This document shows positions 10,850 through 59,741 of a stretch of 64,000 bases of DNA, piece after piece. The translations under genes and the position numbers were made by a program. Source of the stretch: Pachysolen tannophilus NRRL Y-2460 (Eukaryota); NCBI GenBank assembly GCA_001661245.1, contig KV454017.1, positions 549,061-613,060 of the forward strand, given 5' to 3'. Positions within the stretch are counted from its first letter, which is position 1. The number at the start of each line of letters is the position of its first letter. Below the pieces are notes generated by a model, which saw nothing but the letters and a program-made list of their open reading frames with translations, made no database searches and had not been told where the DNA came from.

Positions 10850-11427
10850 NNNNNNNNNNNNNNNNNNNNNNNNNNNNNNNNNNNNNNNNNNNNNNNNNNN
10901 NNNNNNNNNNNNNNNNNNNNNNNNNNNNNNNNNNNNNNNNNNNNNNNNNNNNNNNNNNNNNNNNNNNNNNNNNNNNNNNNNNNNNNNNNNNNNNNNNNNN
11001 NNNNNNNNNNNNNNNNNNNNNNNNNNNNNNNNNNNNNNNNNNNNNNNNNNNNNNNNNNNNNNNNNNNNNNNNNNNNNNNNNNNNNNNNNNNNNNNNNNNN
11101 NNNNNNNNNNNNNNNNNNNNNNNNNNNNNNNNNNNNNNNNNNNNNNNNNNNNNNNNNNNNNNNNNNNNNNNNNNNNNNNNNNNNNNNNNNNNNNNNNNNN
11201 NNNNNNNNNNNNNNNNNNNNNNNNNNNNNNNNNNNNNNNNNNNNNNNNNNNNNNNNNNNNNNNNNNNNNNNNNNNNNNNNNNNNNNNNNNNNNNNNNNNN
11301 NNNNNNNNNNNNNNNNNNNNNNNNNNNNNNNNNNNNNNNNNNNNNNNNNNNNNNNNNNNNNNNNNNNNNNNNNNNNNNNNNNNNNNNNNNNNNNNNNNNN
11401 NNNNNNNNNNNNNNNNNNNNNNNNNNN
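10850..11427. other. Assembly gap (N run)
   Basis: Ns in the sequence. Confidence 1.
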
Positions 11428-35730: not shown

Positions 35731-36060
35731 GATAAGCGTTTTTTTTTTTTTTGTTTTCACTGAGAAGCTTTTTTAAACTTCATCTTTTAGAAGTAGTTAT
35801 ATTTTATTCTATATTTATGATTATAAATAGCAGCTTTCTACAGGGTAATCAAGTTTTTTTTTTTCTTCTTTTTTTTAAAAAGAAAAATTCATGTGAATAT
35901 TTCAAGTATTTTAAATTTTATTACGAAGAAGATTATTTATTACTTTTAAGGATGTTTATGTTGAAATATGTACTTAGTAGCGGATATTGTCTTAGAAGTG
36001 CGGCTACAGACGCTTTAAATAAATAAAAAAAACATAAAAAACCGGAAAAAAAAATTAAAT

Positions 36061-36148
36061 AGCCCGACGCGGGGGTCGAACCCGCAACCTTTTGATATCC
36101 GTTTAATATCGTAAGAGTCAAACGCTCTACCGATTGAGCTAGCCAGGC
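36061..36148 (-). tRNA. tRNA-Lys(CUU) with a 15-nt intron (36097-36111)
   Basis: Manual fold: GCCTGGC/GTCGGGC acceptor stem, GCTC/GAGC D-stem, TTTGA-CT-CTT-A[intron]A-TCAAA anticodon arm, GCGGG-TTCGACC-CCCGC T-arm. A T-run terminator follows. Confidence 0.96.
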
Positions 36149-36877
36149 TTAAATTTTAATTGTTTTTGTCCCATGATAAACATCTGCATTTATACTCTTA
36201 AAAACCTATGCAAAAAGTGTAGTTACCTACACCACAACTTCGCCTCTCACACCATTTACACCAACATCCTACACCGGTATATATCCCCAATCCCAATTTA
36301 TGAATTGTATATTACATATATACATAGATATAGTTTTCTAGGAACCTTCAAGCTATTGTGACAGAAGCAATTTTCTTTGGTATTCTTTTTAACTTGTTTT
36401 AAAGCTTTTTCAACAGAATGATGACAAACAATTTTGAATTGAACCAATAAAATACCAAAAAAAGCTATCCATTTCTAATTTGTAACTACTTTAAGGATTA
36501 ATTCTAATCTTGAATCTTATTTCTATTAAATTTCAATTAAAAGTTTACAATTGGCAAAGAGTAATTGAACATTTTTTTTTTTCATTTAGTTTCAAAACGT
36601 ATAAAATTTAAGTTATAAATTTTTATTGAAAATAAGATATTAGTATATTAAAGAAGTTGAAATTTAACCTGTGTAAAAACCCAATAACTGAAAAGCAATG
36701 CCAAAATCACCGCTATATACTGAAAAGAATGCAACTATAAACAATACTCCATCAAAGTGAAATAAATAATTAAAAATTAAAGATACTCAAAAGAAATTTT
36801 TCAAACGAAAATAAAAATGTAATAATAAAAAACCATCTAGTCGCCAGATAATTAATTAAGACGCAAAAAAAAAAACA

Positions 36878-37649: not shown

Positions 37650-40600
37650 CTATATTTTATTTTCTTCTAGTTGAAGATTTTTCCAGAGATCAGATAACTA
37701 GTTTAGCAAAAATAAAAAAAAAAAATAATAGAATATTATCATAATAGTTAGAGAATTGCCAGGGGTAAGCTGAAGAAAAAAAACAAAGTTTTTTATGAAT
37801 ACTTACTTTTCTTTCAGCATCTGGAGAGATATAGCCTGAGAGTTTCATAGAGATTGTACACCAATATTCGCCTTCCTCTCTCCGTTTTTCACTGCATTAG
37901 CATTGTTAGAAATAAGGGTTCTTAGTTTTTTTTTTTTTTTTTTTTTTTCTTTCATTGTAGTTGGAAATACTCACATTATATATGAAACTCCTCGATTCCA
38001 ACAAGTGATCGATAACCACTCTATTTCTTCAATTGGGACCGGATCTTCGGTAGTAGTTACACGAATTCTCGTATACATTTGATCGACAATACGTTTCCAA
38101 GTTTCTTCCTCTTTTGTTGATAAATTCTCTAGTAAAAATCTCACCCATTTAGAAACATTTTTAGAAGATACCGATTTACTTCCAATGGATCTATCAGCAA
38201 TTATTAATAAAATTGAAGATTTTTTTGAAGATGATATATTTTTTTGCTTGTTAATAGTATGAATTAAAACATTATCTAGCTTCAAGGAATAAGGTACAGG
38301 TAATTTTTGTGTTTCTTGGGCCGTGGTTTCCGCAGAGCTCCAGTTACTTAAGCATAAATCTGCATTAAATTGAAAAGATAAAATAGTAGCGTATGATTCA
38401 TTCCAGATTGCTTTCTCATCTTCACCACACTCCAGTAATTTTCGTAAAATAAAAGTATTTAAATTCAAACAACACTGTAAGATTTCTTTCCATATCTCTA
38501 TTTTTTCATTTTCCTTGATCATTTCATCAGCTGTTAGCATAGACAAAGATAGTAAATACACAACATAGCTTCTAGTATACCATATATGTAACCTGCTGTT
38601 GTTTTCATTACTGATATCTTTTGGAATTAGTTCATTAAATTTAAATGAAATTTTAGATAATTCCTTTGAATATGTACATAGCGATGACTCAACACATTCT
38701 AAAGATATTGTATAACTTTTAGATGAAAACCATTCCAAATCATTAAAAGTGAAAACTTTTCGATTATTTTTTTTCTTTGAAACAAATAAAGCAAACTGAT
38801 AACTTTCATAGAAAAGTTCTTGTAACTTATCTAAATACAATATCATCATATTCTTATCAGTTTCTTTAACACTATTGAACTCCTGGATAATTAACTCAAC
38901 AGTAGAGCGTAAAGAGGAAACTATTAATAGATCATTGGATAATGTTGTCACATCCGCTTCATTATTCAACCCGCTAACATTAATACTTTTAATAACAGAC
39001 ATAACACCATGGATGGTGACATTGAAATTATCTATTTTTCTTGCTTCAATTGTAGACATTGCCAATACCGTAATTCGATTTGGGTCTTTGGAATTATTAA
39101 TCGTATCCAATATTTTGATTGCCTTCGTATTATCCTTTTTCAGCAAAGAAACCATGAACAAACAATATTGGGTGATTGGATTCAATCTGTCGTCATCATC
39201 CATCGTGTTACATAAAGATTCAACTTTATCATACTGGCGTAAAGCTAAATTGCACTTCAAAATATTTCTTTGAATTTTTCCCTTTTGCGTATTCTCATGA
39301 CTAATTAAACGGTGTAATGATAATTCAAACCAGCTAATTGCTACTTTATAATTTTTTTCCTTCTTTAAACGTGTTCCAGAATTCCACAAAAGTGTGACAA
39401 TACAACTTGAACATCTCTTGGTCAAAGGTTTAAAAAATTTCTTTTCAGAAGTGTTCAAATAAGAACTGATATCTTCTGGTGAAGGACTTTCAAATTTTGA
39501 AATACTGATCCATATTCTCACAGTCATTAACGATTCCAAATGATCATGAAAATCTTTAATAGGATCTAGCTTATCACTATTGACAATATAATCTAAACAG
39601 CGAATTGCTCCCATAGGATCATAATTTGCGTGTTCATTAATTAAACCCATAATTTCTTTAAAATTCTGTGCAAATGAAATTGATTTCAACATTCTCATAA
39701 TCACTTTCTCTATATCCTGAGCTTGGTTTTCTGTTTTTTGAGACTTCAAAAAATTAACGAGTAACGTATATGGTTCAATTTTAGTTGGAAATTTGTTTTC
39801 CAAATACGAAATAAAATTATGAGCTTTATTATAATCATCTCGTTTCATACAACAGTGTATTAGTAAGATCAAATTGTTTAAATGAACAATTCTAACTGCA
39901 TCTTCATCGGTTTGAATTGACTCTAAATATTCAAAACATTTGCTACCAAAGTAGAAGCTTTGATCAAAAGTATTTCGATTGAATAAATTTAAACTTGCAT
40001 TATACAATATTCTGCAATAATTTAAAATAAATTTTGAATCAATAATTCCTTCATTTAATTTTTTTGCTATAGAAATTTTTGAATCATATAATTTTGCAAT
40101 TTCAAAATCACGGACACAAAGGGATAATTGTATATCTACAACGTATATTTCAACCTTGATAAGTTCCAATTGAGGTGCCAATTTCCTCAAATTAATTGAA
40201 TTTTCAATTTCAAGCAAAGAAATTAACTTATCTGAATAATCTTGAATTTTTTTGGCTAAATCAATCTCATTTTCATCCATGCAGGAATTAAATAATTTCA
40301 AAAACAATTTAAGAATTTTCAACTTGTTATCGACTGATTTCTTAAATGATTCATGAACCCACAATAACATGATTGCAAACAATCTAACATTACATACAAC
40401 TGATTTCAAGTTACCCTCGTAAGATCTATAGTACACAGAAGCCGTGTTCCATAAACTTGAACCTGAAGCATCTATAGATTCCAATGTAACAGACGTTACC
40501 GATTCATTCTCATCACTTACTTTTTCAGTTTTAGTATAATTGGTATTCCTAATCGATTCTAAAATCGGCAACAAACTGGTAACATTAACCGTCTCAATCT

Positions 40601-40796
40601 CATTCTGCTCAAACAGTCGAATGAAACTTTTGGCATTATCTATTGTACAATTCAAATGTTAGATCTCATAATTATACTTCTTCTCAATCTAGACAATACA
40701 ACATTCACAATGTTGTAGTGCAAAAATGATACTTCTAAAAGGGAAAGGGTAATAAATACCATCCAACTGTTTCAAAGTTTCTTCAACATTTGACAT
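37650..40796 (-). CDS. SPO22: Meiotic ZMM TPR protein Spo22/Zip4; exons 40796-40760, 40639-37975, 37891-37807, 37697-37650
   Basis: SCIVTLLWNSG, WFELSLH, KIQRNILKC, EWFSSKSY, EIEWLSITCWNRG motifs. Introns GTATTT..CTAAC..TAG, GTGAGT..CTAAC..CAG and GTAAGT..CTAAC..TAG all keep frame and give the C-terminus EEGEYWCTISMKLSGYISPDAERKLSDLWKNL, similar to yeast Spo22. Alternative in-frame ATG at 40805. Confidence 0.88.
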
Positions 40797-41003
40797 AACT
40801 TCCATTTCAAAGCTCTTAAGCCAAAAATCAACACAAAATCAATCCAACAAGATAACCAAACGCTCTTTAATTCAATTAATAATATAATAAAATACAATTA
40901 GATAAATGAAATGTTCAGATCTCATAAGCGTTTAAATTTAATCTGGATTTTTGATTTGATTTCTTGTATGCTAATATTGCACGACTAAATTTGAATATAT
41001 ATT

Positions 41004-41651
41004 TTATGTATTTAAAATCATCAATTGGTTGGTTGGTTGATTTTGATAAAAAAACCAGGAATGCATTATAAGATAAGCACATGTAATGAACGATCCTATG
41101 TCAAATGCTAAAACCATATTTGGATAACCTGAAATTAAGGAACTAATCAAAGTATCAAAAGATCTCACTGAAATCAATAATGACAAATCCAATGAATAAA
41201 ATCTATTTTTCGAAACAGCATCTATTTGAAAACGCGGGAAATTAACCGCTGAAGAAATGAAACTTGAAACAAAAATTGAAATTAATCTAACTAATTCATT
41301 GTTTTTCATCTTGAAAACTTTCAACAAAACCAGTCTCAAAGCTGGATCTATAGAGTTCAACGTAAAAATCAATTTGAACATGAAAAATGGGAACTTATCT
41401 AACTGAGCAGCTTTTCTTAACAATTTATAACATTTAAGCAAATCATTTTTAAAATCAAAATCATTTTTTCTATGTTTAAACAGAATCACCATTCTACTTA
41501 TCAACTTCGGCAAAGTGATATATATATACGTGACAAAAAAAGCTTTTGCAGATGATTTAGCATTCTTGTTTGCATATTTCATTAAGAGTTGAACCACCAA
41601 AGCAATCTGCTCTGCCTTAGTTTTTTGCTTCATCAAGTTCGCAGAACTCAT
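41004..41651 (-). CDS. N-terminal half of a TMEM135-family membrane protein (split gene)
   Basis: FPFF...LDLSLLISVRSFD...FITCAYLIMHSWFFY. Family similarity stops at Tyr202 and is followed by 13 unrelated residues. Confidence 0.8.
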   Translation of the reverse strand: MSSANLMKQKTKAEQIALVVQLLMKYANKNAKSSAKAFFVTYIYITLPKLISRMVILFKHRKNDFDFKNDLLKCYKLLRKAAQLDKFPFFMFKLIFTLNSIDPALRLVLLKVFKMKNNELVRLISIFVSSFISSAVNFPRFQIDAVSKNRFYSLDLSLLISVRSFDTLISSLISGYPNMVLAFDIGSFITCAYLIMHSWFFYQNQPTNQLMILNT

Positions 41652-41772
41652 ATATTAAATTTTTTTTTCTTTTTTCTTTTTTTTTGTTTTTTCCTCCAAA
41701 CCACTGAAAACTATTGATAACCAAAAATCACAAAAGTTGCCAAGTCACACCATATACTATACTCTTCCCTAA

Positions 41773-42579
41773 ATGCTTCTCTTTCCTACAAGATTACCCC
41801 CAAGTTATCGTAACTGGATAACAAAAGCTGCAAATATGGATACAGAATTAGTTGAAGCCTTAAGATTAATGCATAGTAATCAATTATTTTATGGGAAGCC
41901 TAGTGAAAATGAAAAAGTTTTAGAACCATTATGCTTAAGAATTAATATTGATCCACTGACAGGTAATCCTGCAAAGACTTTTCCTATTCCTTGTAAAGTT
42001 GTTCATTCAGGCTTGACAGATAGTTGTGAAATTAATTCATTAATAAAATTTTGGAAAGGTTTTAAATTTGCATTCAAGATATACGCACCTTTAAATTCTA
42101 TTATCATGTTAATTAGTGCGGTAAACACAAAAAACAAAATCATGTTTCGTTCCATTTTCATTAAAAATTTAATATCATCCTTAAGGTCTTCAATTTTCTT
42201 AGCTACTTTTATAGCCTTGAATTGGTATCCGATTTGTCTCTTTAGAAATAAAATTGGACCGTTTTTGTCGAAATACAAGTTATTATCATCAACTGTGAAT
42301 AATAATTTTGACAAATCTTTAGCTCCATCTTTTGGTTCTTTTATTTGTGGATTAAGTTCTTTAATTGAGACCTCGAAAAGAAGAAAAGATTTGACCTTGT
42401 TTATGGCTCCAAAAGCATTATTAACTATTATACCCTTGGAACTGAAAGAATCTTACTTACGAATTGAAAGTTTCGCATTTAGTGTTTTTTTCGCAATCTT
42501 GGTTTGTTACGCAAAAGAGCACCCAAAGAAAATAAGAGGCATGTATGGTAAAGGGTTGAGCGCTCTATTAAAATTGTAA
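41773..42579 (+). CDS. C-terminal half of the same TMEM135-family protein (split gene)
   Basis: PTRLPPSYRNWI...PCKVVH...SC...LRSSIFLATF...LIETSKRRKDLTLFMAPKAL are typical TMEM135 motifs; the ORF starts mid-domain. Confidence 0.85.
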   Translation: MLLFPTRLPPSYRNWITKAANMDTELVEALRLMHSNQLFYGKPSENEKVLEPLCLRINIDPLTGNPAKTFPIPCKVVHSGLTDSCEINSLIKFWKGFKFAFKIYAPLNSIIMLISAVNTKNKIMFRSIFIKNLISSLRSSIFLATFIALNWYPICLFRNKIGPFLSKYKLLSSTVNNNFDKSLAPSFGSFICGLSSLIETSKRRKDLTLFMAPKALLTIIPLELKESYLRIESFAFSVFFAILVCYAKEHPKKIRGMYGKGLSALLKL

Positions 42580-43006
42580 GTTTTTTTTTTTTTTATTTTC
42601 ACCTATGTAATGTATTCTACAACTGTAAATTGCTTCATTTTATAGGTTTATGTGATTATTAATAAATAACGATAACGAAAAAGCAAAAATCGAACAAAGA
42701 TTTATAAACAATGGCAAACTTGTGTTTTTCTAATATTAATGATTAAATTACAAAAGAAAAAAAAAAAAAAAAAAAAATAGACATTCAAACAAGATAAAAC
42801 AAAATTCAATTTTTTGACTGTGCTATTATTTTTTTCAAATTTAGAAATAAAAACAGATAAGAAACTCTGAAAGAGCAAAACGATTGAAATTTTTTTGGAA
42901 AACAACACTTAATTTTCTTTAGAGACAAGAGATTTAAAATAGAACAAAAAACATAAAACAAAAAACAAAAGAAAAAAAAAAAAAAAATTCAAGAAACAAA
43001 ATGAAT

Positions 43007-46000
43007 TTAAGAATTAACTGCATTGGCCATCTGGATCAAACGCTTGATACCAACCATCCATTGACCACATTCAGATGGATGTTCGATCGAAACTTCTGAT
43101 TGTAATCTGGCAACATTGTCATAATCGCGAACTTCAAAATATTTTACTAACTCCAATAACCTAGCAATAATATCGTCACTCAATTCCTCGTTATTCAAAT
43201 GGTCGAATAAAATATCAATTCTCTTCTTCGTATCCAGAACTTGTTTCTGGTATTTTTCTGGCATCTTCGGTGTAACTGTATCTAAAACTTTTGACAAAAC
43301 ATGATATATAGGTAAAACGTTTTGTGGAATGTGCTCACGATCACCAGCTGGATACTTTTGTTTTTGGAGTTCATTCTGTTGCTGCTGTTGTTGCTGCAAA
43401 GAGACCGGTTTTGGTGGTGGAGGAGCAAATGAAGCACCTGCACCTTGGCTGTACAAATCGGTGGAACTTGTCATAGGAGAAGTAATTGAGTTGAGAGCCG
43501 TAGCAGGTGGCGGCATAGTAAAACTAGAACCGGAAGGTTGCATTGGATTGCTAACAGGTGCTGATGGAGCATAAGGATTTTTTGGGGCCTGCGGAGGTTG
43601 TGAAAAGTTTGGTGGAGGTGGTGGAGGGGGCATCTGCTGTTGAGGAGGAGCAGCTGATGGTGGTCTTCTAGCGTACGGATTTGTCACGTTAACCAGAGTT
43701 TGTGATGGCGGAGAAGGAAAAGCATGCTGTCTCTGTTGATCTAGCTGTTGAGGCTGTGGTGGTGGAGCGTATCTATTAGACTTGACTGATGCTGGAGCTG
43801 GCGATTGTGGTAAAGAAGGAGTAGCCGATCTACTTGAAGCCTTTGGTGGAGGATTAAGTGATGGCGGCGGTTGATTGAACGATGTATTACGTGTCTGTGA
43901 TGGAGTACCTCTTGCCAATTCCGTACTGCCATGTTGCCCTAAAGCAATGTTCGAATATGGAGAAGAAGTCAGGTTTGTAGTTGGTCGACTTCTGTTGGTA
44001 CCAATATGAGAAGGCAAATCATTCCAACCTCCAACATCTTTTTTTATACTAGCTTTTGGTGGTGCTGGTGGAGGCATTGAATCATCATGTTGCTTCAATT
44101 GTTGTTGTGCCAGCAAAGATCCATGTCTAACGCTATCCAAAGCAGTTGATGGAGCATAAGCATTCAGTGTGACGGACAATCTTGGACCAGCTGATGGTGT
44201 AGATACAGCAGCAGTAGCATACGGGTTTATAACACTAGCTGCTGGTTGTTGCTGAGCACCGTTATACGCAGGCAGTCTGAAATTATTTTGATTTGCCAAA
44301 GTGGCCGGAGCAAACGATGGAGAAGTATTTGGAAGCTGTTGACTCAAAGATGATGGAGGATTTAACTGAGTCGCTGGAGTGACCTGATTGTAATATGGCT
44401 TCATGTATGAAGCTCTTCTAGGAGCTCCGGAAGTCGATAACCTTGATATCGCAGGGTTTTGAATTGGTTTTACAATCGTCTTTCCCAATACTTTGGCGAG
44501 ACGTTCCTTTTCTAATTTCAAACCTTCAAGATTTTCAGGTAACAATTGCAAGAATTTATCGGCTAGTTCAAAATGACCAAAGCCAGCAACTGAGTTTGAG
44601 TATTCTAAATAAGCCTTACAAATAGGCTCAAGACCTGGTCCAGAAAATTCACCTGTAATTTTTGAAGCTGCTCTGTAAACAGTGATTTTTTCGACAAATT
44701 CGTTCAAAGCTTTGAAATGAGCTTCGGATGGAGTTAAGTGAGTCTCTGACTTCAACAATTCTGTTTCTGTTTCTGTCAATTCTTTTATCCATATTGCTGC
44801 AATCTTATTAATAGCTCCACCAGCTAAATAACATATAAAAGCGTTTTGACGAGCATCAGGTAATTCCGAAAATAAGATACGATCACCTAATTCTGAAATC
44901 TTTTTACTAAACTCTTCAGATTGCTTACAATATGTTGAAATTGCTGATGCAATCTCTTTCCAGTTAGTAACATCACCATTAACAACAAGATCTGTAATAT
45001 CCTTGGAAGCAACATTGTATATCAAACGTGAAATCGCTGAATTTTCAACAGTCTTTTTGAAATATGCATTCTTAACTTTTTCCTTAATTTCATTAGAAGA
45101 GTCTAAGGCCAATACAAATGCCTCAGACAAACGATCTTCTTTAAGGCATAAACTTACTGCTTCATCAAGTTTTCCTGATAAAATAGCCTTTTTCAAATTT
45201 TTATCCACTTCAGAGTCATCGATTGGGTTCAACGAGAATTTACCAGTAGGAATGAAAGATTGAAAATCAGAATCTAAACTAAGTTTAGCAAATATATCAT
45301 CTGAATCATCATCTAAAAATGAAGTATCTCCATTTTCGGTTTTTTCTTTATTTTCAGTTTTTTCTTTATTTTCAACTTCTTGAGTCTTTTCCTTTTCAGA
45401 TGTAGACTTTTCCTTTTCAGTTTTCTGTGAAGATATTTCGAATGAAATACTTTGTTTTAGTAAATCAGATTTATCTGTAACTAACAAAGTTTTTAATAAT
45501 TTCCAATCAGATTTGGTGGTTTCAGTTGCAGCTTTAGAAATTCTCTCTTCGACAACTTCAGTGAAATCATTTTTTTCTAAAGCTGCAGTCAAACTATTGG
45601 CAGCATCCTCGACATTAGTATCACTAACAAATTTAGTTATTGAAATTGTTGATTTTGCTTCATCTTTATTTGGTTGAGTTACATGAACAATTTTACCACC
45701 AAAACCAAAAGAAACACTTGTTGGACGTTTCAACCATTTTGGGGCTTTTTTAACAGCAAACTCAGGCTGTTGAGTATCTGTTTCAGATAATTGATTCCAA
45801 AATTCTTCAGGATTAGATGAAGTTGAAACTTTAGAAGAAACGGGTGGTGAAGTATCTTGTAATGTTTGGACCACCACCTTACCATCAAATGAAGCTGTAG
45901 CAAAGATTTCTGGTAAAGATGGAGCAAACCTTGTTTCGAAAACCCAATTAGCAGTTGTTGGATATTCACCAATTTTAGTACCTTCTTTTGGATCCCATAA

Positions 46001-46852
46001 ATAAGTAGAATTATCTTTACCACTTGAAAGTAACAATTCATCATCTTGAGGACACCAATCTAATGATAAGACACCTTTCTTATGACCTGTTAAAATTTTT
46101 TCTGGTTCTCTTGGATTTCTTAAATTCCAAGATAAAATATATGGTGCTCCATCTGTATCAGAAGCAGTTACTAATTTTGTACTTTCACTTGGATGCCAAG
46201 AAACCACAGATAAGTTACATCTTCCAGTTGGACTTGTATAATTCAAATGTAAAACTTCCTTTTGTGCTCTTAAATCCCAAATTGAAGTATAACCTGTAGT
46301 ACCAGCAGATGCAAAAACGTGACTAACGCTATTATTCCATGAAAGACAAGTTATATCTTCCATTGGAGTCATTGCCTTCCCAGGAGCAATTGGATGGTCT
46401 ATCTTATTAGTATCCCATATGAAGATTTCACCTTTGGCACCAGCAGTGGCAAGAACATGATCTTCAGTAGGACTAAATTGAACAGCTTTTACTGGACCAG
46501 AATGATTTTTCCCAATATAAATACTAGCAGCGTCAAGCGAAGAACCATCTATTAATTTCTTGGCATCCCAGAATTGAACAATACTATTTTCTAAAGCTCC
46601 AACAAGCATACCATTGGTATGATCCGCATATTTCTTACTCCATGCTAAAGCATGAAATTTTGTATCCAAAGCAGCAGAAACTATTGGTTCCTTTGTCAAT
46701 TTGGAACTCAATATATCCCAAATCTCCAATTTCGACGAAGCCGAAAAATCCAAATCAACAGCGCCTGCCGCAGAACCAGTAGCCAACAACGGTAGCGAAT
46801 CATGAGACCATACAAACGTTGCTGTACGTTCAACTTCACTAAGTTTCACCAT
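43007..46852 (-). CDS. SEC31: COPII outer coat protein Sec31
   Basis: MVKLSEVERTATFVWS WD40 N-terminus, APKWLKRP..VSFGFGGK, Pro-rich region with GGWNDLP, C-terminal helical domain (WMVGIKRLI). Confidence 0.98.
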   Translation of the reverse strand: MVKLSEVERTATFVWSHDSLPLLATGSAAGAVDLDFSASSKLEIWDILSSKLTKEPIVSAALDTKFHALAWSKKYADHTNGMLVGALENSIVQFWDAKKLIDGSSLDAASIYIGKNHSGPVKAVQFSPTEDHVLATAGAKGEIFIWDTNKIDHPIAPGKAMTPMEDITCLSWNNSVSHVFASAGTTGYTSIWDLRAQKEVLHLNYTSPTGRCNLSVVSWHPSESTKLVTASDTDGAPYILSWNLRNPREPEKILTGHKKGVLSLDWCPQDDELLLSSGKDNSTYLWDPKEGTKIGEYPTTANWVFETRFAPSLPEIFATASFDGKVVVQTLQDTSPPVSSKVSTSSNPEEFWNQLSETDTQQPEFAVKKAPKWLKRPTSVSFGFGGKIVHVTQPNKDEAKSTISITKFVSDTNVEDAANSLTAALEKNDFTEVVEERISKAATETTKSDWKLLKTLLVTDKSDLLKQSISFEISSQKTEKEKSTSEKEKTQEVENKEKTENKEKTENGDTSFLDDDSDDIFAKLSLDSDFQSFIPTGKFSLNPIDDSEVDKNLKKAILSGKLDEAVSLCLKEDRLSEAFVLALDSSNEIKEKVKNAYFKKTVENSAISRLIYNVASKDITDLVVNGDVTNWKEIASAISTYCKQSEEFSKKISELGDRILFSELPDARQNAFICYLAGGAINKIAAIWIKELTETETELLKSETHLTPSEAHFKALNEFVEKITVYRAASKITGEFSGPGLEPICKAYLEYSNSVAGFGHFELADKFLQLLPENLEGLKLEKERLAKVLGKTIVKPIQNPAISRLSTSGAPRRASYMKPYYNQVTPATQLNPPSSLSQQLPNTSPSFAPATLANQNNFRLPAYNGAQQQPAASVINPYATAAVSTPSAGPRLSVTLNAYAPSTALDSVRHGSLLAQQQLKQHDDSMPPPAPPKASIKKDVGGWNDLPSHIGTNRSRPTTNLTSSPYSNIALGQHGSTELARGTPSQTRNTSFNQPPPSLNPPPKASSRSATPSLPQSPAPASVKSNRYAPPPQPQQLDQQRQHAFPSPPSQTLVNVTNPYARRPPSAAPPQQQMPPPPPPPNFSQPPQAPKNPYAPSAPVSNPMQPSGSSFTMPPPATALNSITSPMTSSTDLYSQGAGASFAPPPPKPVSLQQQQQQQNELQKQKYPAGDREHIPQNVLPIYHVLSKVLDTVTPKMPEKYQKQVLDTKKRIDILFDHLNNEELSDDIIARLLELVKYFEVRDYDNVARLQSEVSIEHPSECGQWMVGIKRLIQMANAVNS

Positions 46853-47125: not shown

Positions 47126-47388
47126 NNNNNNNNNNNNNNNNNNNNNNNNNNNNNNNNNNNNNNNNNNNNNNNNNNNNNNNNNNNNNNNNNNNNNNNNNNN
47201 NNNNNNNNNNNNNNNNNNNNNNNNNNNNNNNNNNNNNNNNNNNNNNNNNNNNNNNNNNNNNNNNNNNNNNNNNNNNNNNNNNNNNNNNNNNNNNNNNNNN
47301 NNNNNNNNNNNNNNNNNNNNNNNNNNNNNNNNNNNNNNNNNNNNNNNNNNNNNNNNNNNNNNNNNNNNNNNNNNNNNNNNNNNNNNNN
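47126..47388. other. Assembly gap (N run)
   Basis: Ns in the sequence. Confidence 1.
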
Positions 47389-54071: not shown

Positions 54072-57000
54072 ATGGCTAGTAAAGGTGGAAGATTTCCCTA
54101 TTCTAGTGCGCCACTTCGTACTGTTAAGGAAGTAAGTAATACCTCATACGTTTGACTGAGGGATTCATAATTATCAATTGAACATTAGTACTTAACTTTT
54201 TTTTTTTCTTTTTACTTTTACAGGTTCAATTTGGTCTTCTTTCTCCGGAAGAAATTAGAGCTATTTCGGTTGCCAAAATAGAATATCCTGAAGTCTATGA
54301 CCAATCGCATCAGCGATTAAGAGTAGGAGGATTGAATGATCCTAGGTTAGGAACAGTTGACAGATACTTGAAATGTGAAACATGTGGTGAGGATGCAAAT
54401 GAATGCCCTGGTCATTTTGGTCACATAGAATTGGCAAGACCTGTTTTCCATATCGGATTCATTCCTAAAATCAAGAAAGTTTGTGAATGTATCTGTATGC
54501 ATTGTGGTAAGTTGTTATTAGATGAAACTAACCCATTATTTGCCCAAGCTGTAAAAGTTAGGGACCCAAAAAAGAGATTTCACGCAGTTTGGAGTTTATG
54601 TAAAACAAAAATGGTTTGTGAGGCAGATATACCTCAAGAAAATGAAAATGGGGATGTTACCCAGATTGCAAGAGGTGGTTGTGGTAATACACAACCAACT
54701 GTTAGAAAAGATGGATTGAAATTATGGGGTACTTGGAAGAAAAATGTAGATGAAGCAGACCAACCGGAACGTAGATTATTGACACCAGCAGAGATTTTAA
54801 ATGTTTTTAAACATATCTCACCAGAGGATTGTAAAAAGTTGGGATTTAATGAAGATTATGCGAGACCAGAATGGATGATAATAACTGTTTTACCAGTTCC
54901 TCCTCCAGCAGTTAGACCTTCAGTTCAAGTCAATGATACTGCTCGTGGTGAAGATGATTTAACTTTCAAACTAGCTGATATTGTAAAATATAACATGAGT
55001 GTTCAGAAGTTAGAAATGGATGGATCTCCTCTTCACGTTATTAGTGAATATGAAGCATTATTGCAATTCCATGTTGCCACTTATATGGATAATGATATAG
55101 CCGGACAACCACAAGCATTACAAAAATCAGGTAGACCAATCAAATCCATAAGAGCCAGATTAAAGGGTAAAGAAGGTAGACTAAGAGGTAATTTAATGGG
55201 TAAGCGTGTTGATTTTTCAGCTCGTACAGTCATTTCTGGTGATCCAAACTTGGAATTAGATCAAGTTGGAGTTCCAAGAAGTATTGCAAGAACCTTGACT
55301 TATCCAGAAATGGTCACCCCTTACAATATTCATAAATTGACTCTGTTGGTTAGAAATGGTCCAAACGAACATCCAGGTGCAAGGTATGTCTTCCGTGACA
55401 CTGGAGAGCGTATAGATTTAAAATACCATAAACGTGCGGGTGATATAGCGTTGCAATACGGTTGGATTGTTGAGCGTCATCTTATGGATAATGACCCTGT
55501 TTTGTTCAACCGTCAACCCTCTTTGCATAAGATGTCAATGATGACACATAGAGTTAAAGTCATGCCTTATTCTACTTTCAGATTGAACTTGTCTGTTACT
55601 TCTCCTTATAATGCTGATTTTGATGGTGATGAAATGAATTTACATGTCCCCCAATCTGAAGAAACTAGAGCAGAGTTGTCCCAATTATGTGCGGTTCCTT
55701 TACAAATTGTGTCTCCACAATCGAATAAACCTGTTATGGGTATTGTTCAAGATACATTGTGTGGTATTAGAAAAATGACCCTTCGAGATGTATTCATCGA
55801 GTATGATCAAGTTATGAATATTTTGTATTGGATTCCAACATGGGACGGAGTTATCCCAGAACCAACAATAATAAAACCAAAACCTTTATGGACAGGTAAG
55901 CAAATGCTTTCTATGGTTATTCCTAAAGGAATAAACATAGAAAGAAAAGATGAAAAGTTTACATATCTTTCAAAAGATGATACAGGGATGTTAATTATAG
56001 ATGGAGAAATAATGTTGGGTGTCGTGAATAAAAAAACTGTTGGTGCCACAGGTGGTGGTTTAATCCATGCTGTCATGAGAGAGAAAGGACCACAAGTATG
56101 TGCTGACTTATTTGGTAATATTCAAAAAGTTGTAAATTATTGGTTATTACATAATGGTTTCTCTATAGGTATTGGTGATACCATCGCTGACGCTCCAACC
56201 GTTAGACAAATTACTAACACTATTTTAAAAGCAAAAGACAAAGTTCAAGAGATTATTTTGAGGGCTCAAAATAACGAGTTACCACCTGAACCAGGTATGA
56301 CATTGAGAGAATCTTTTGAGCAAAATGTTTCTCAAGTTTTAAATCAAGCCCGTGATGATGTTGGTAAAGCTACAGCAGATGCATTAAAAGATTTGAACAA
56401 CGTTAAACAGATGGTTTCAGCTGGTTCCAAAGGTTCTAACATTAATATTTCCCAAATGTCTGCCTGTGTTGGTCAGCAAATTGTGGAAGGTAAACGTATT
56501 CCATTTGGGTTTTCTGATAGATCGTTACCGCATTTTACTAAGGATGATTACTCTCCAGAATCTAGAGGATTTGTTGAAAATTCATATTTAAGAGGTTTGA
56601 CACCACAAGAATTTTTCTTCCATGCTATGGCTGGTCGTGAAGGATTAATTGATACTGCTGTTAAAACAGCAGAAACCGGTTATATTCAGCGTCGTTTAGT
56701 CAAGGCTTTAGAAGATATCATGGTTCACTATGATGGTACTACTAGAAACTCTCTTGGTAATGTTTTGCAATTTATTTACGGTGAAGATGGTCTTGATGCT
56801 ACCCAAGTTGAGAAACAAGCTATTGACACCATTCCAGGAACAGATGAAGCTTTTGAGCGTCGTTATAGAATTGATGTTATGGATCAATCGAAATCTATTC
56901 GTCCAGAGTTGATTGAATATGGTTCGGAAATTATTGGTGATGTGAATTTGCAAAGTATTTTAGATGAGGAATATAATCAATTACTAGAGGACCGTCGTTA

Positions 57001-59425
57001 TTTAAGAGAAGAATGTTTCTTGAATGGTGATTTCCAATGGCCTTTGCCTGTAAATATTCGTCGTGTGATTCAAAACTCACAAAAGATTTTTCATATCGAT
57101 CATTCTAAAGCAAGTGATTTGACATTACAGGATATTGTACGTGGAGTTCAAGAACTATGTGGCAAGTTATATGTTACTAAAGGTTCGGGAAAATTGTACG
57201 AAGAAAGTACGGCAAATGCCACTTTGTTATTCCAGTGTTTGATTCGTTCCCGTCTTGCTACACGTCGTATTGTTGAAGAATATAGATTGAGTAAAATTGC
57301 ATTTGAATGGGTTTTGGGTCAAATTGAGGATCAATTCCAACGTTCAGTTGTTCATCCTGGTGAAATGGTAGGTGTTGTTGCTGCTCAATCTATTGGTGAG
57401 CCTGCTACTCAAATGACATTGAATACGTTCCATTTTGCCGGTGTTTCTTCAAAGAACGTCACTTTAGGTGTTCCTCGTCTTAAGGAAATTTTGAACGTTG
57501 CCAAGAACATTAAAACACCTGCTTTAACTGTTTATCTAGAACCTGAAGTTGCGGCAGATATAGAGAAAGCAAAAGTTGTTCAATCTGCCATCGAACATGC
57601 TACCTTGAAAAATGTTACTGCCGCTACTGAGATTTATTACGATCCAGATCCTAGAACAACTGTTATAGAGGAGGATTTGGACACAGTCGAGGCATATTTT
57701 GCTATTCCAGACGAAAAAGTTGAAGAAACTATTGATAAGCAATCACCTTGGTTACTTCGTTTTGAACTTGATCGTACCAAGATGTTGGATAAACAATTGA
57801 CAATGAGTCAAGTTGTTGATAAAATCAAGGAAAATTTCCTTGATGATATTTTTGTCATTTGGTCTGAAGATAATGCTGATAAGTTAATTATTCGTTGTCG
57901 TGTTGTCCGTGATCCAAAATCTATGGATCCAGATGATGAAGATAAGGAAGATCAAATGTTGAAGATGGTTGAAGCTCAAATGTTAGAATCGATTTCTCTT
58001 CGTGGTATTCCAGGTATAATCAGAGTCTTTATGATGAAGCATAAGAGAAGAGATCCGGATGCAACAGGTGCCTATAAAGATGGTGAAGAGTGGGTTCTTG
58101 AAACTGATGGTATTAATCTTGCGGAAGTCATGTCTGTTTCAGGTGTTGACTCTACGAGAACTTATTCTAACTCATTCGTTGAAGTCTTGTCTGTCCTTGG
58201 TATTGAAGCAGCAAGAAACGCTGTCTACAAAGAAATTCTTAACGTTATTTCTTTCGATGGTTCTTATGTCAACTATAGACATATGTCTTTATTGGTTGAT
58301 GCTATGACTTCCAGAGGGCATTTGATGGCTATTACTCGTCATGGTATTAATAGGGCAGATACTGGGGCTTTGATGAGGGCTTCATTTGAGGAAACAGTCG
58401 AAATTCTTCTTGAAGCTGGTGCTACAGCCGAGTTGGATGATTGTCATGGTGTTTCTGAAAATGTTATGTTAGGTCAAATAGCACCTTTGGGTACTGGTTC
58501 TTTTGACGTTATGATTGATGAGGATATGCTAAGTGCATTACCCGGTAGTTATGGTCTGCTGCCGGTTTCATTCTCCAAACTTTCTAAAGCTGGAGATGGT
58601 GCTGCCACACCTTATGAGTCGGGTATTTCCTTTGACAATGAGCAAGTTTATGATGACAGTTCTGCGGCATTCTCTCCTATTGTCCAGTCGGGTGCTGAGG
58701 TTGATGAGAACACGGGTCACTTAACAGCATATGGTGGATTCCAGAGTTCTTACACTCCTGCGTCTCCGGGAATTGCTCCTACTTCGCCATTTTCAGGTGC
58801 TGGTTTTGGTGCAACATCTCCTGGATACTCAGTCACATCTCCTGGATATAATGTCACCTCCCCAAGTTATTCGCCAGCTTCTCCAAGTTATTCACCAACT
58901 TCACCATCCTATTCACCAACTTCACCAAGTTATTCACCAACATCTCCAAGTTATTCTCCAACATCTCCAAGTTATTCTCCGACTTCACCAAGTTATTCGC
59001 CAACTTCACCAAGTTATTCTCCGACTTCACCAAGTTATTCTCCAACTTCACCATCCTATTCACCAACTTCACCAAGTTATTCTCCAACATCGCCATCCTA
59101 TTCGCCAACTTCACCATCTTACAGTCCAACTTCTCCTCAATATAGTCCAACTTCTCCACAATACAGTCCAACATCTCCTCAATATAGTCCGACTTCACCA
59201 CAGTACTCACCTACTTCACCACAGTACAGCCCAACTTCACCGCAGTACAGTCCAACTTCACCGCAGTACTCACCTACTTCACCACAATACAGTCCGACCT
59301 CGCCTCAATATTCACCTACATCACCACAATATAGTCCAACCTCACCACAATATTCACCTACGTCACCACAATACAGTCCGAAGTCTCCATCTTACAGTAA
59401 GAAAGATGAGAAGGAGGATCATTAA
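54072..59425 (+). CDS. RPO21: RNA polymerase II largest subunit Rpb1; exons 54072-54131 and 54224-59425
   Basis: Exon 1 [20 protein letters not shown] joins in frame to [11 protein letters not shown] across a 92-nt GTAAGT..CAG intron. [10 protein letters not shown] and a heptad CTD are present. Confidence 0.99.
58805..59392 (+). repeat. 21-bp coding repeats of the Rpb1 CTD
   Basis: Degenerate heptads, then YSPASPS, 11x YSPTSPS, 12x YSPTSPQ and YSPKSPS. Confidence 0.97.
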
Positions 59426-59741
59426 AAATATAAATGGGCTTAGTTGTTTCCTATATAAGCTAGTCCTGGTGTATTTTTATGAAGCTTTTAATTTGAAGAA
59501 TAATTCCTCATTAGCTCGTGGTCCTATGTTTCCTTGGTTGAAGAGTTTAATAAAAAGAGATTTTATTTTGTTTATTAGTATGCGCAAGTTAACTTTTCTA
59601 TAGAGTAACTTGATTTTTTTTATTTATGTACGTTTTTGTTTAATTTTGTTTTTCTTCTAATAAAAAAGTAAAGTGATATAAAAACTGTTCATGTAATTAT
59701 GAACAAACTAATGTATATACAATGTATACGCCTTTAATTAT

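Follow-up and report, generated by a model that had tools for sequence, protein, structure and literature searches.

In the draft assembly of Pachysolen tannophilus, a TMEM135-like gene appears as two divergent halves, an arrangement best explained (probability about 0.88) by a local mis-orientation of ~740 bp, the organism's gene being whole. The window analysed here is the whole stretch of 64,000 nucleotides in which the two halves lie. According to this reading, the organism would carry one intact 466-codon gene for an eight-helix, TMEM135-like membrane protein, arranged divergently to the adjacent SPO22 gene, and the assembly would have placed ~740 bp (41045-41785), comprising the leader and the first 202 codons, backwards, so that a whole gene came to resemble two divergent half genes. 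The flip would have arisen in assembly or finishing, and the perfect state of both halves would follow from their being unaltered DNA that was merely set down the wrong way round, nothing having happened in the cell. An earlier note on this DNA had described one gene cut by an inversion of ~739 bp. That description holds for the window sequence as given, and the two-half arrangement is a property of the assembly and not of the organism's DNA as seen in the read-derived contigs.

Two reading frames and their rejoining

The front half of the gene lies in an open reading frame on the minus strand (41004-41651, 215 aa), in which 41046-41651 (202 codons) is the real coding part. Its family-like portion stops at ...SWFFY (Tyr codon 41048-41046), just where the earlier note had placed it, and is followed by a 13-codon tail and a stop (41004-41045, minus strand), both products of the flip. 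The back half occupies 41773-42579 on the plus strand (268 aa), with real coding at 41785-42579 (264 codons and the stop). This frame opens with the codons MLLF (41773-41784, plus strand), a stretch that belongs to the true 5' leader and is read here on its opposite strand, and runs into PTRLPPSY from 41785. We also recovered the other features proposed for the locus, namely an in-frame ATG four codons ahead of the breakpoint, a second methionine at codon 22 of the plus-strand frame, and a gap of 121 bp (41652-41772) between the two ATGs. The true 5' leader and proximal promoter (41652-41784, minus strand) lie within the flipped segment, which spans 41045-41785, or equally 41046-41784, when the window is compared with the contigs of four runs (2-nt ambiguity).

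Reverse-complementing 41046-41784 by script yielded a single open frame of 466 codons (202 + 264), as had been predicted, and the product was identical with breakpoints at 41045-41785 or 41047-41783. Neither half is decayed, and the rejoined frame is fully open. The two halves matched adjacent, non-overlapping stretches of the same proteins, and not unrelated families or overlapping parts of one family; together with the exact restoration of the frame, this is more than chance.

The flip neither lost nor gained bases, and both of its breakpoints are clean. The junctions have 2 nt in common, which we saw as the 2-nt breakpoint ambiguity in both the frame test and the run contigs. They lie in unique sequence and coincide with no N gap, no repeat and no contig end. 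Among the 25 inverted-repeat pairs listed of the 111 found, none had its arms at the junctions, in agreement with the earlier note, and the longest arms nearby belonged to unrelated chance pairs; a repeat-mediated origin was rejected on this basis. A simple scaffolding error does not usually leave seamless breakpoints in unique sequence with 2 nt shared, and a real event with two breaks could produce them too.

Read-derived contigs across the junctions

Five public runs contained 0.95 of the sampled words from 40600-42700, and the junctions were tested in the Logan contigs of four runs. Three of these (X1, X3 and X4) derive from one sample of a study from 2010-11 (P1), and the fourth (X5) derives from a different sample of a study from 2023 (P2). 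In all four runs, 41044 led directly into 41785 read on the opposite strand, and 41045, likewise read on the opposite strand, led directly into 41786. At the left junction, each run had a contig of ~3.2 kb that covered 40600-41044 and then continued unbroken into the reverse complement of 41785-41699. At the right junction, a contig of 1633 nt in each run covered the reverse complement of 41650-41045 and continued unbroken into 41786-42700. The word depth of these intact-order contigs was 70-194. These contigs thus attach the left flank to the distal end of the segment and fuse the two halves of the gene head-to-tail, which is the order of the intact, rejoined gene. Contig breaks were confined to a T/A-rich tract inside the segment (41651-41698) in all four runs.

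We further compared word depth in the bins that contain the junctions of the window (41026-41096 and 41736-41806). In 4/4 runs, it equalled the sum of the intact-order contigs and one 25-nt repeat match. The junction-bin depth was thus fully accounted for, which means that no contig in any of the four runs lay on the junctions of the window; Logan contigs omit rare variants, and minority orientations are invisible in them. Intact orientation alone, which the earlier note had named as the expected outcome for an assembly error, was therefore found in 4/4 runs from two studies at the contig level. The note had offered four options for the locus. Mis-assembly withstood this comparison, whereas functional fission, a bidirectional mini-promoter and a switchable segment were not supported by the intact-only contigs of all four runs. 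An intron or trans-splicing was rejected as well, because the halves lie on opposite strands in the assembly only and the contigs show one gene.

Apart from orientation, no letter differed between the runs and the window over 2101 bases, which indicates that the runs come from the same strain as the window or a near-identical one. The absence of letter differences speaks to the identity of the strain but not to that of the DNA preparation, and the four runs probably stand for one strain. A single difference in length was found in the T-run behind position 42580, just past the stop codon (42581-42594, plus strand), where all four runs are one T longer than the window; the assembly has probably miscounted this homopolymer. 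The window was thus the odd one out against the runs on both orientation and T-run length. By computation, the two false junctions alone would remove 2.9% of 31-mers, and the missing 5% of words is about the size expected from two false junctions plus the T-run difference.

These data also bear on whether the inversion could be real. A very recent micro-inversion, formed by two breaks with 2-nt microhomology and amounting to a knock-out allele private to the assembled clone or DNA, would account for clean junctions that share 2 nt in unique sequence and not in repeats or gaps, and for two halves as undecayed as those of a very young event. End-joined micro-inversions with two breaks share with this locus the pair of clean breakpoints, the 2-nt microhomology and the absence of base loss or gain, but such an event is expected in the reads of the affected DNA, and it was absent from the contigs of the four runs. 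With 4/4 runs from two studies containing only the intact form in their contigs, at 100% identity elsewhere, we consider a private allele of this kind unlikely. We regard as highly unlikely that the assembled DNA truly carried the flip, either through a micro-inversion burst in the clone or as minority molecules, while the bulk cultures of the four runs were without it.

Another possibility is an invertible segment that switches, so that a culture would contain both forms and the assembly would represent the less frequent of them. Rare variants are invisible in the contigs, and the lineage has a programmed inversion at its mating-type locus, which PMC6692504 describes for Pachysolen tannophilus as a starvation-induced flip/flop of 8 kb between 2-kb inverted repeats. 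The likeness consists of a DNA segment that can lie either way round in a CUG-Ala clade yeast. The segment studied here differs from that system in its size (0.74 kb), in its lack of flanking repeats among the 25 pairs listed of 111, and in its single orientation in the contigs. Its junctions share only 2 nt, the junctions of the window occurred in no contig of the four runs, and the adjoining genes are SPO22-like and Sec31-like, with no recombinase gene evident beside the segment. The chance that it is switchable thus appears very remote.

An error of the assembly is, by comparison, consistent with the draft state of the scaffold. The window contains N gaps of 578 bases (10850-11427) and 263 bases (47126-47388) and two single Ns in a T-run (11492 and 11498). 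As in other draft mis-assemblies, a short stretch is reversed relative to independent read data and is itself sequence-perfect, and the window shows further marks of a draft in its N gaps, its single Ns and the T-run of differing length. It differs from such mis-assemblies in its seamless breakpoints, which lie in unique sequence away from gaps and repeats. Among titles and the beginnings of abstracts, we found no reports of small inversions or mis-assemblies in the Pachysolen tannophilus assembly or in yeast drafts. A stop-to-stop listing shows the N stretches as ORFs in all six frames.

Relatives and family of the rejoined protein

We compared the halves and the rejoined protein with their relatives. 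The back half found relatives of 380-497 aa with an uninterrupted motif, and a search with it among longer proteins gave one match (P0001, 497 aa). The rejoined protein gave a single colinear match with no gap at residues 202|203 in 8/8 relatives, and in all eight of these first relatives the motif was continuous across the junction, as the earlier note had held for fungal TMEM135 proteins. A profile search of 1.84 billion representatives detected 1633 relatives at E <= 0.001. Among 155 relatives examined, 138 crossed the junction position in one stretch, two had both sides present in separate stretches, 15 were short and comprised just the back side, and none had the front side only. By these counts, the family is normally a single polypeptide. 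Two of the short forms, P0081 (218 aa) and P0085 (262 aa), have a methionine directly before the residue aligned to the junction position and may be gene models cut short at the edge of an exon; the other 13 start at other positions.

The short relatives are relevant to a functional gene fission, in which two expressed four-helix halves would form one membrane protein, driven by a bidirectional promoter of 121 bp. The break falls just past the fourth hydrophobic segment, between two putative four-helix halves, an in-frame ATG stands four codons ahead of it, and two of the 15 back-side-only relatives start exactly at the junction position. TMEM135 has, moreover, been described as two linked Tim17-type domains (PMC5072337). 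The gene is, however, unsplit in this organism's read contigs (4/4 runs), front-side-only forms are missing among the 155 relatives, and the 15 short forms start at scattered profile positions (169-256), as truncated models or fragments would. We therefore assign fission next to no probability.

The assignment to TMEM135 in the earlier note received weak to moderate support, in that PF15982 was the only Pfam match and the back half remained below its cut-off. The back half matched PF15982 with E = 1.3e-4 and 23 bits, against a cut-off of 27 bits, over residues 74-218 of the back-half ORF. In the alignment of relatives (A1), 6/10 members matched this family at E <= 0.1, and among 60 relatives 20 did so at E <= 0.001 (best 6.3e-9), with no match to any other Pfam family. 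In the top ESM Atlas clusters, PF15982 was present in 10-30% of members. Taken together, these matches make it plausible that the rejoined protein belongs to the TMEM135 family.

PF15982 represents the cysteine-rich region of TMEM135, which Pfam places N-terminally in that protein. TMEM135/PMP52 is a peroxisomal membrane protein with eight helices in two linked Tim17-type domains, which seem to have exchanged places during evolution (PMC5072337). The location of this N-terminal Pfam region in the back half would follow from such a swapped domain order. Hydropathy analysis of the rejoined protein showed four hydrophobic segments on the N-terminal side of the joint and three to four on the C-terminal side, and it is thus by coincidence that the false break separates the protein's two halves. 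In these features, the protein resembles TMEM135/PMP52 as a multi-helix membrane protein of similar size with hydrophobic segments in two groups around the joint, but it differs in its Pfam score below the cut-off and in the position of the N-terminal Pfam region in its back half.

We also examined the fold of the family with a model of an intact relative (P0004; pLDDT 94.8, pTM 0.90). A Foldseek search of this model against the PDB returned nothing at E <= 0.001, and a sequence search of solved structures returned nothing below E 0.1. In a wide fold search with the same model, ranks 1-8 went to chains from mitochondrial complex I structures and from the TIM23 core, and TIM22 was represented at rank 34; the Z scores of 5.2-7.8 are below the tool's reliable level for helical bundles. 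We take the matched complex I, TIM23 and TIM22 chains to be Tim17-type proteins.

Public records and neighbouring genes

The flip was also traced in public protein records. The public model P0002 (264 aa) starts exactly at the P of PTRLPPSY (41785) and reads both CTG codons of the back half as alanine, which places this yeast in the CUG-Ala clade; the rejoined protein translated with table 26 matched it at 100%, and the ESM Atlas contains it letter for letter. The start of P0002 at the breakpoint shows that the public record contains the flip and that the annotation has been cut short by it. The possibility that the flip was confined to the examined window sequence was ruled out by the same start and the Atlas copy. 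Compared with proteins of 118-377 aa, the front half gave no match at E <= 0.001 and thus no front-half model in this length band, outside which the longer relatives fall.

The gene, whole and ordinary, would make this case biologically unimportant. Even so, a seamless small flip, this one at least, stands in the public draft of a yeast whose CTG codons specify alanine, and such flips imitate gene fission, trans-splicing and knock-outs. Small inversions thus need to be checked against reads before genes, synteny or pseudogenes are counted on this assembly.

Upstream of the gene, the neighbour was SPO22-like, as the earlier note had named it. This SPO22/ZIP4-like gene (37971-40370, minus strand) matched PF08631 with E = 1.3e-47. 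Its frame continues from the ATG at 40370 to an ATG at 40806, with two stops within ~70 nt, and 40371-40806 likely holds a first exon and a short intron. Downstream lies a gene on the minus strand (43007-46852) whose Sec31-like product combines a WD40 propeller with regions of the Sec16-binding and SRA1-like types.

Elsewhere in the window, a long ORF on the plus strand (54182-59425) ends in a 21-nt tandem repeat of ~13 or more copies (58862-59381). This repeat encodes seven residues, presumably like the repeat that forms the tail of RNA polymerase II's largest subunit, and also keeps a second frame open (58725-59603). The sole tRNA gene found in the window was a tRNA-Val (TAC) on the minus strand (36060-36149), which at 90 nt is long enough for an intron.
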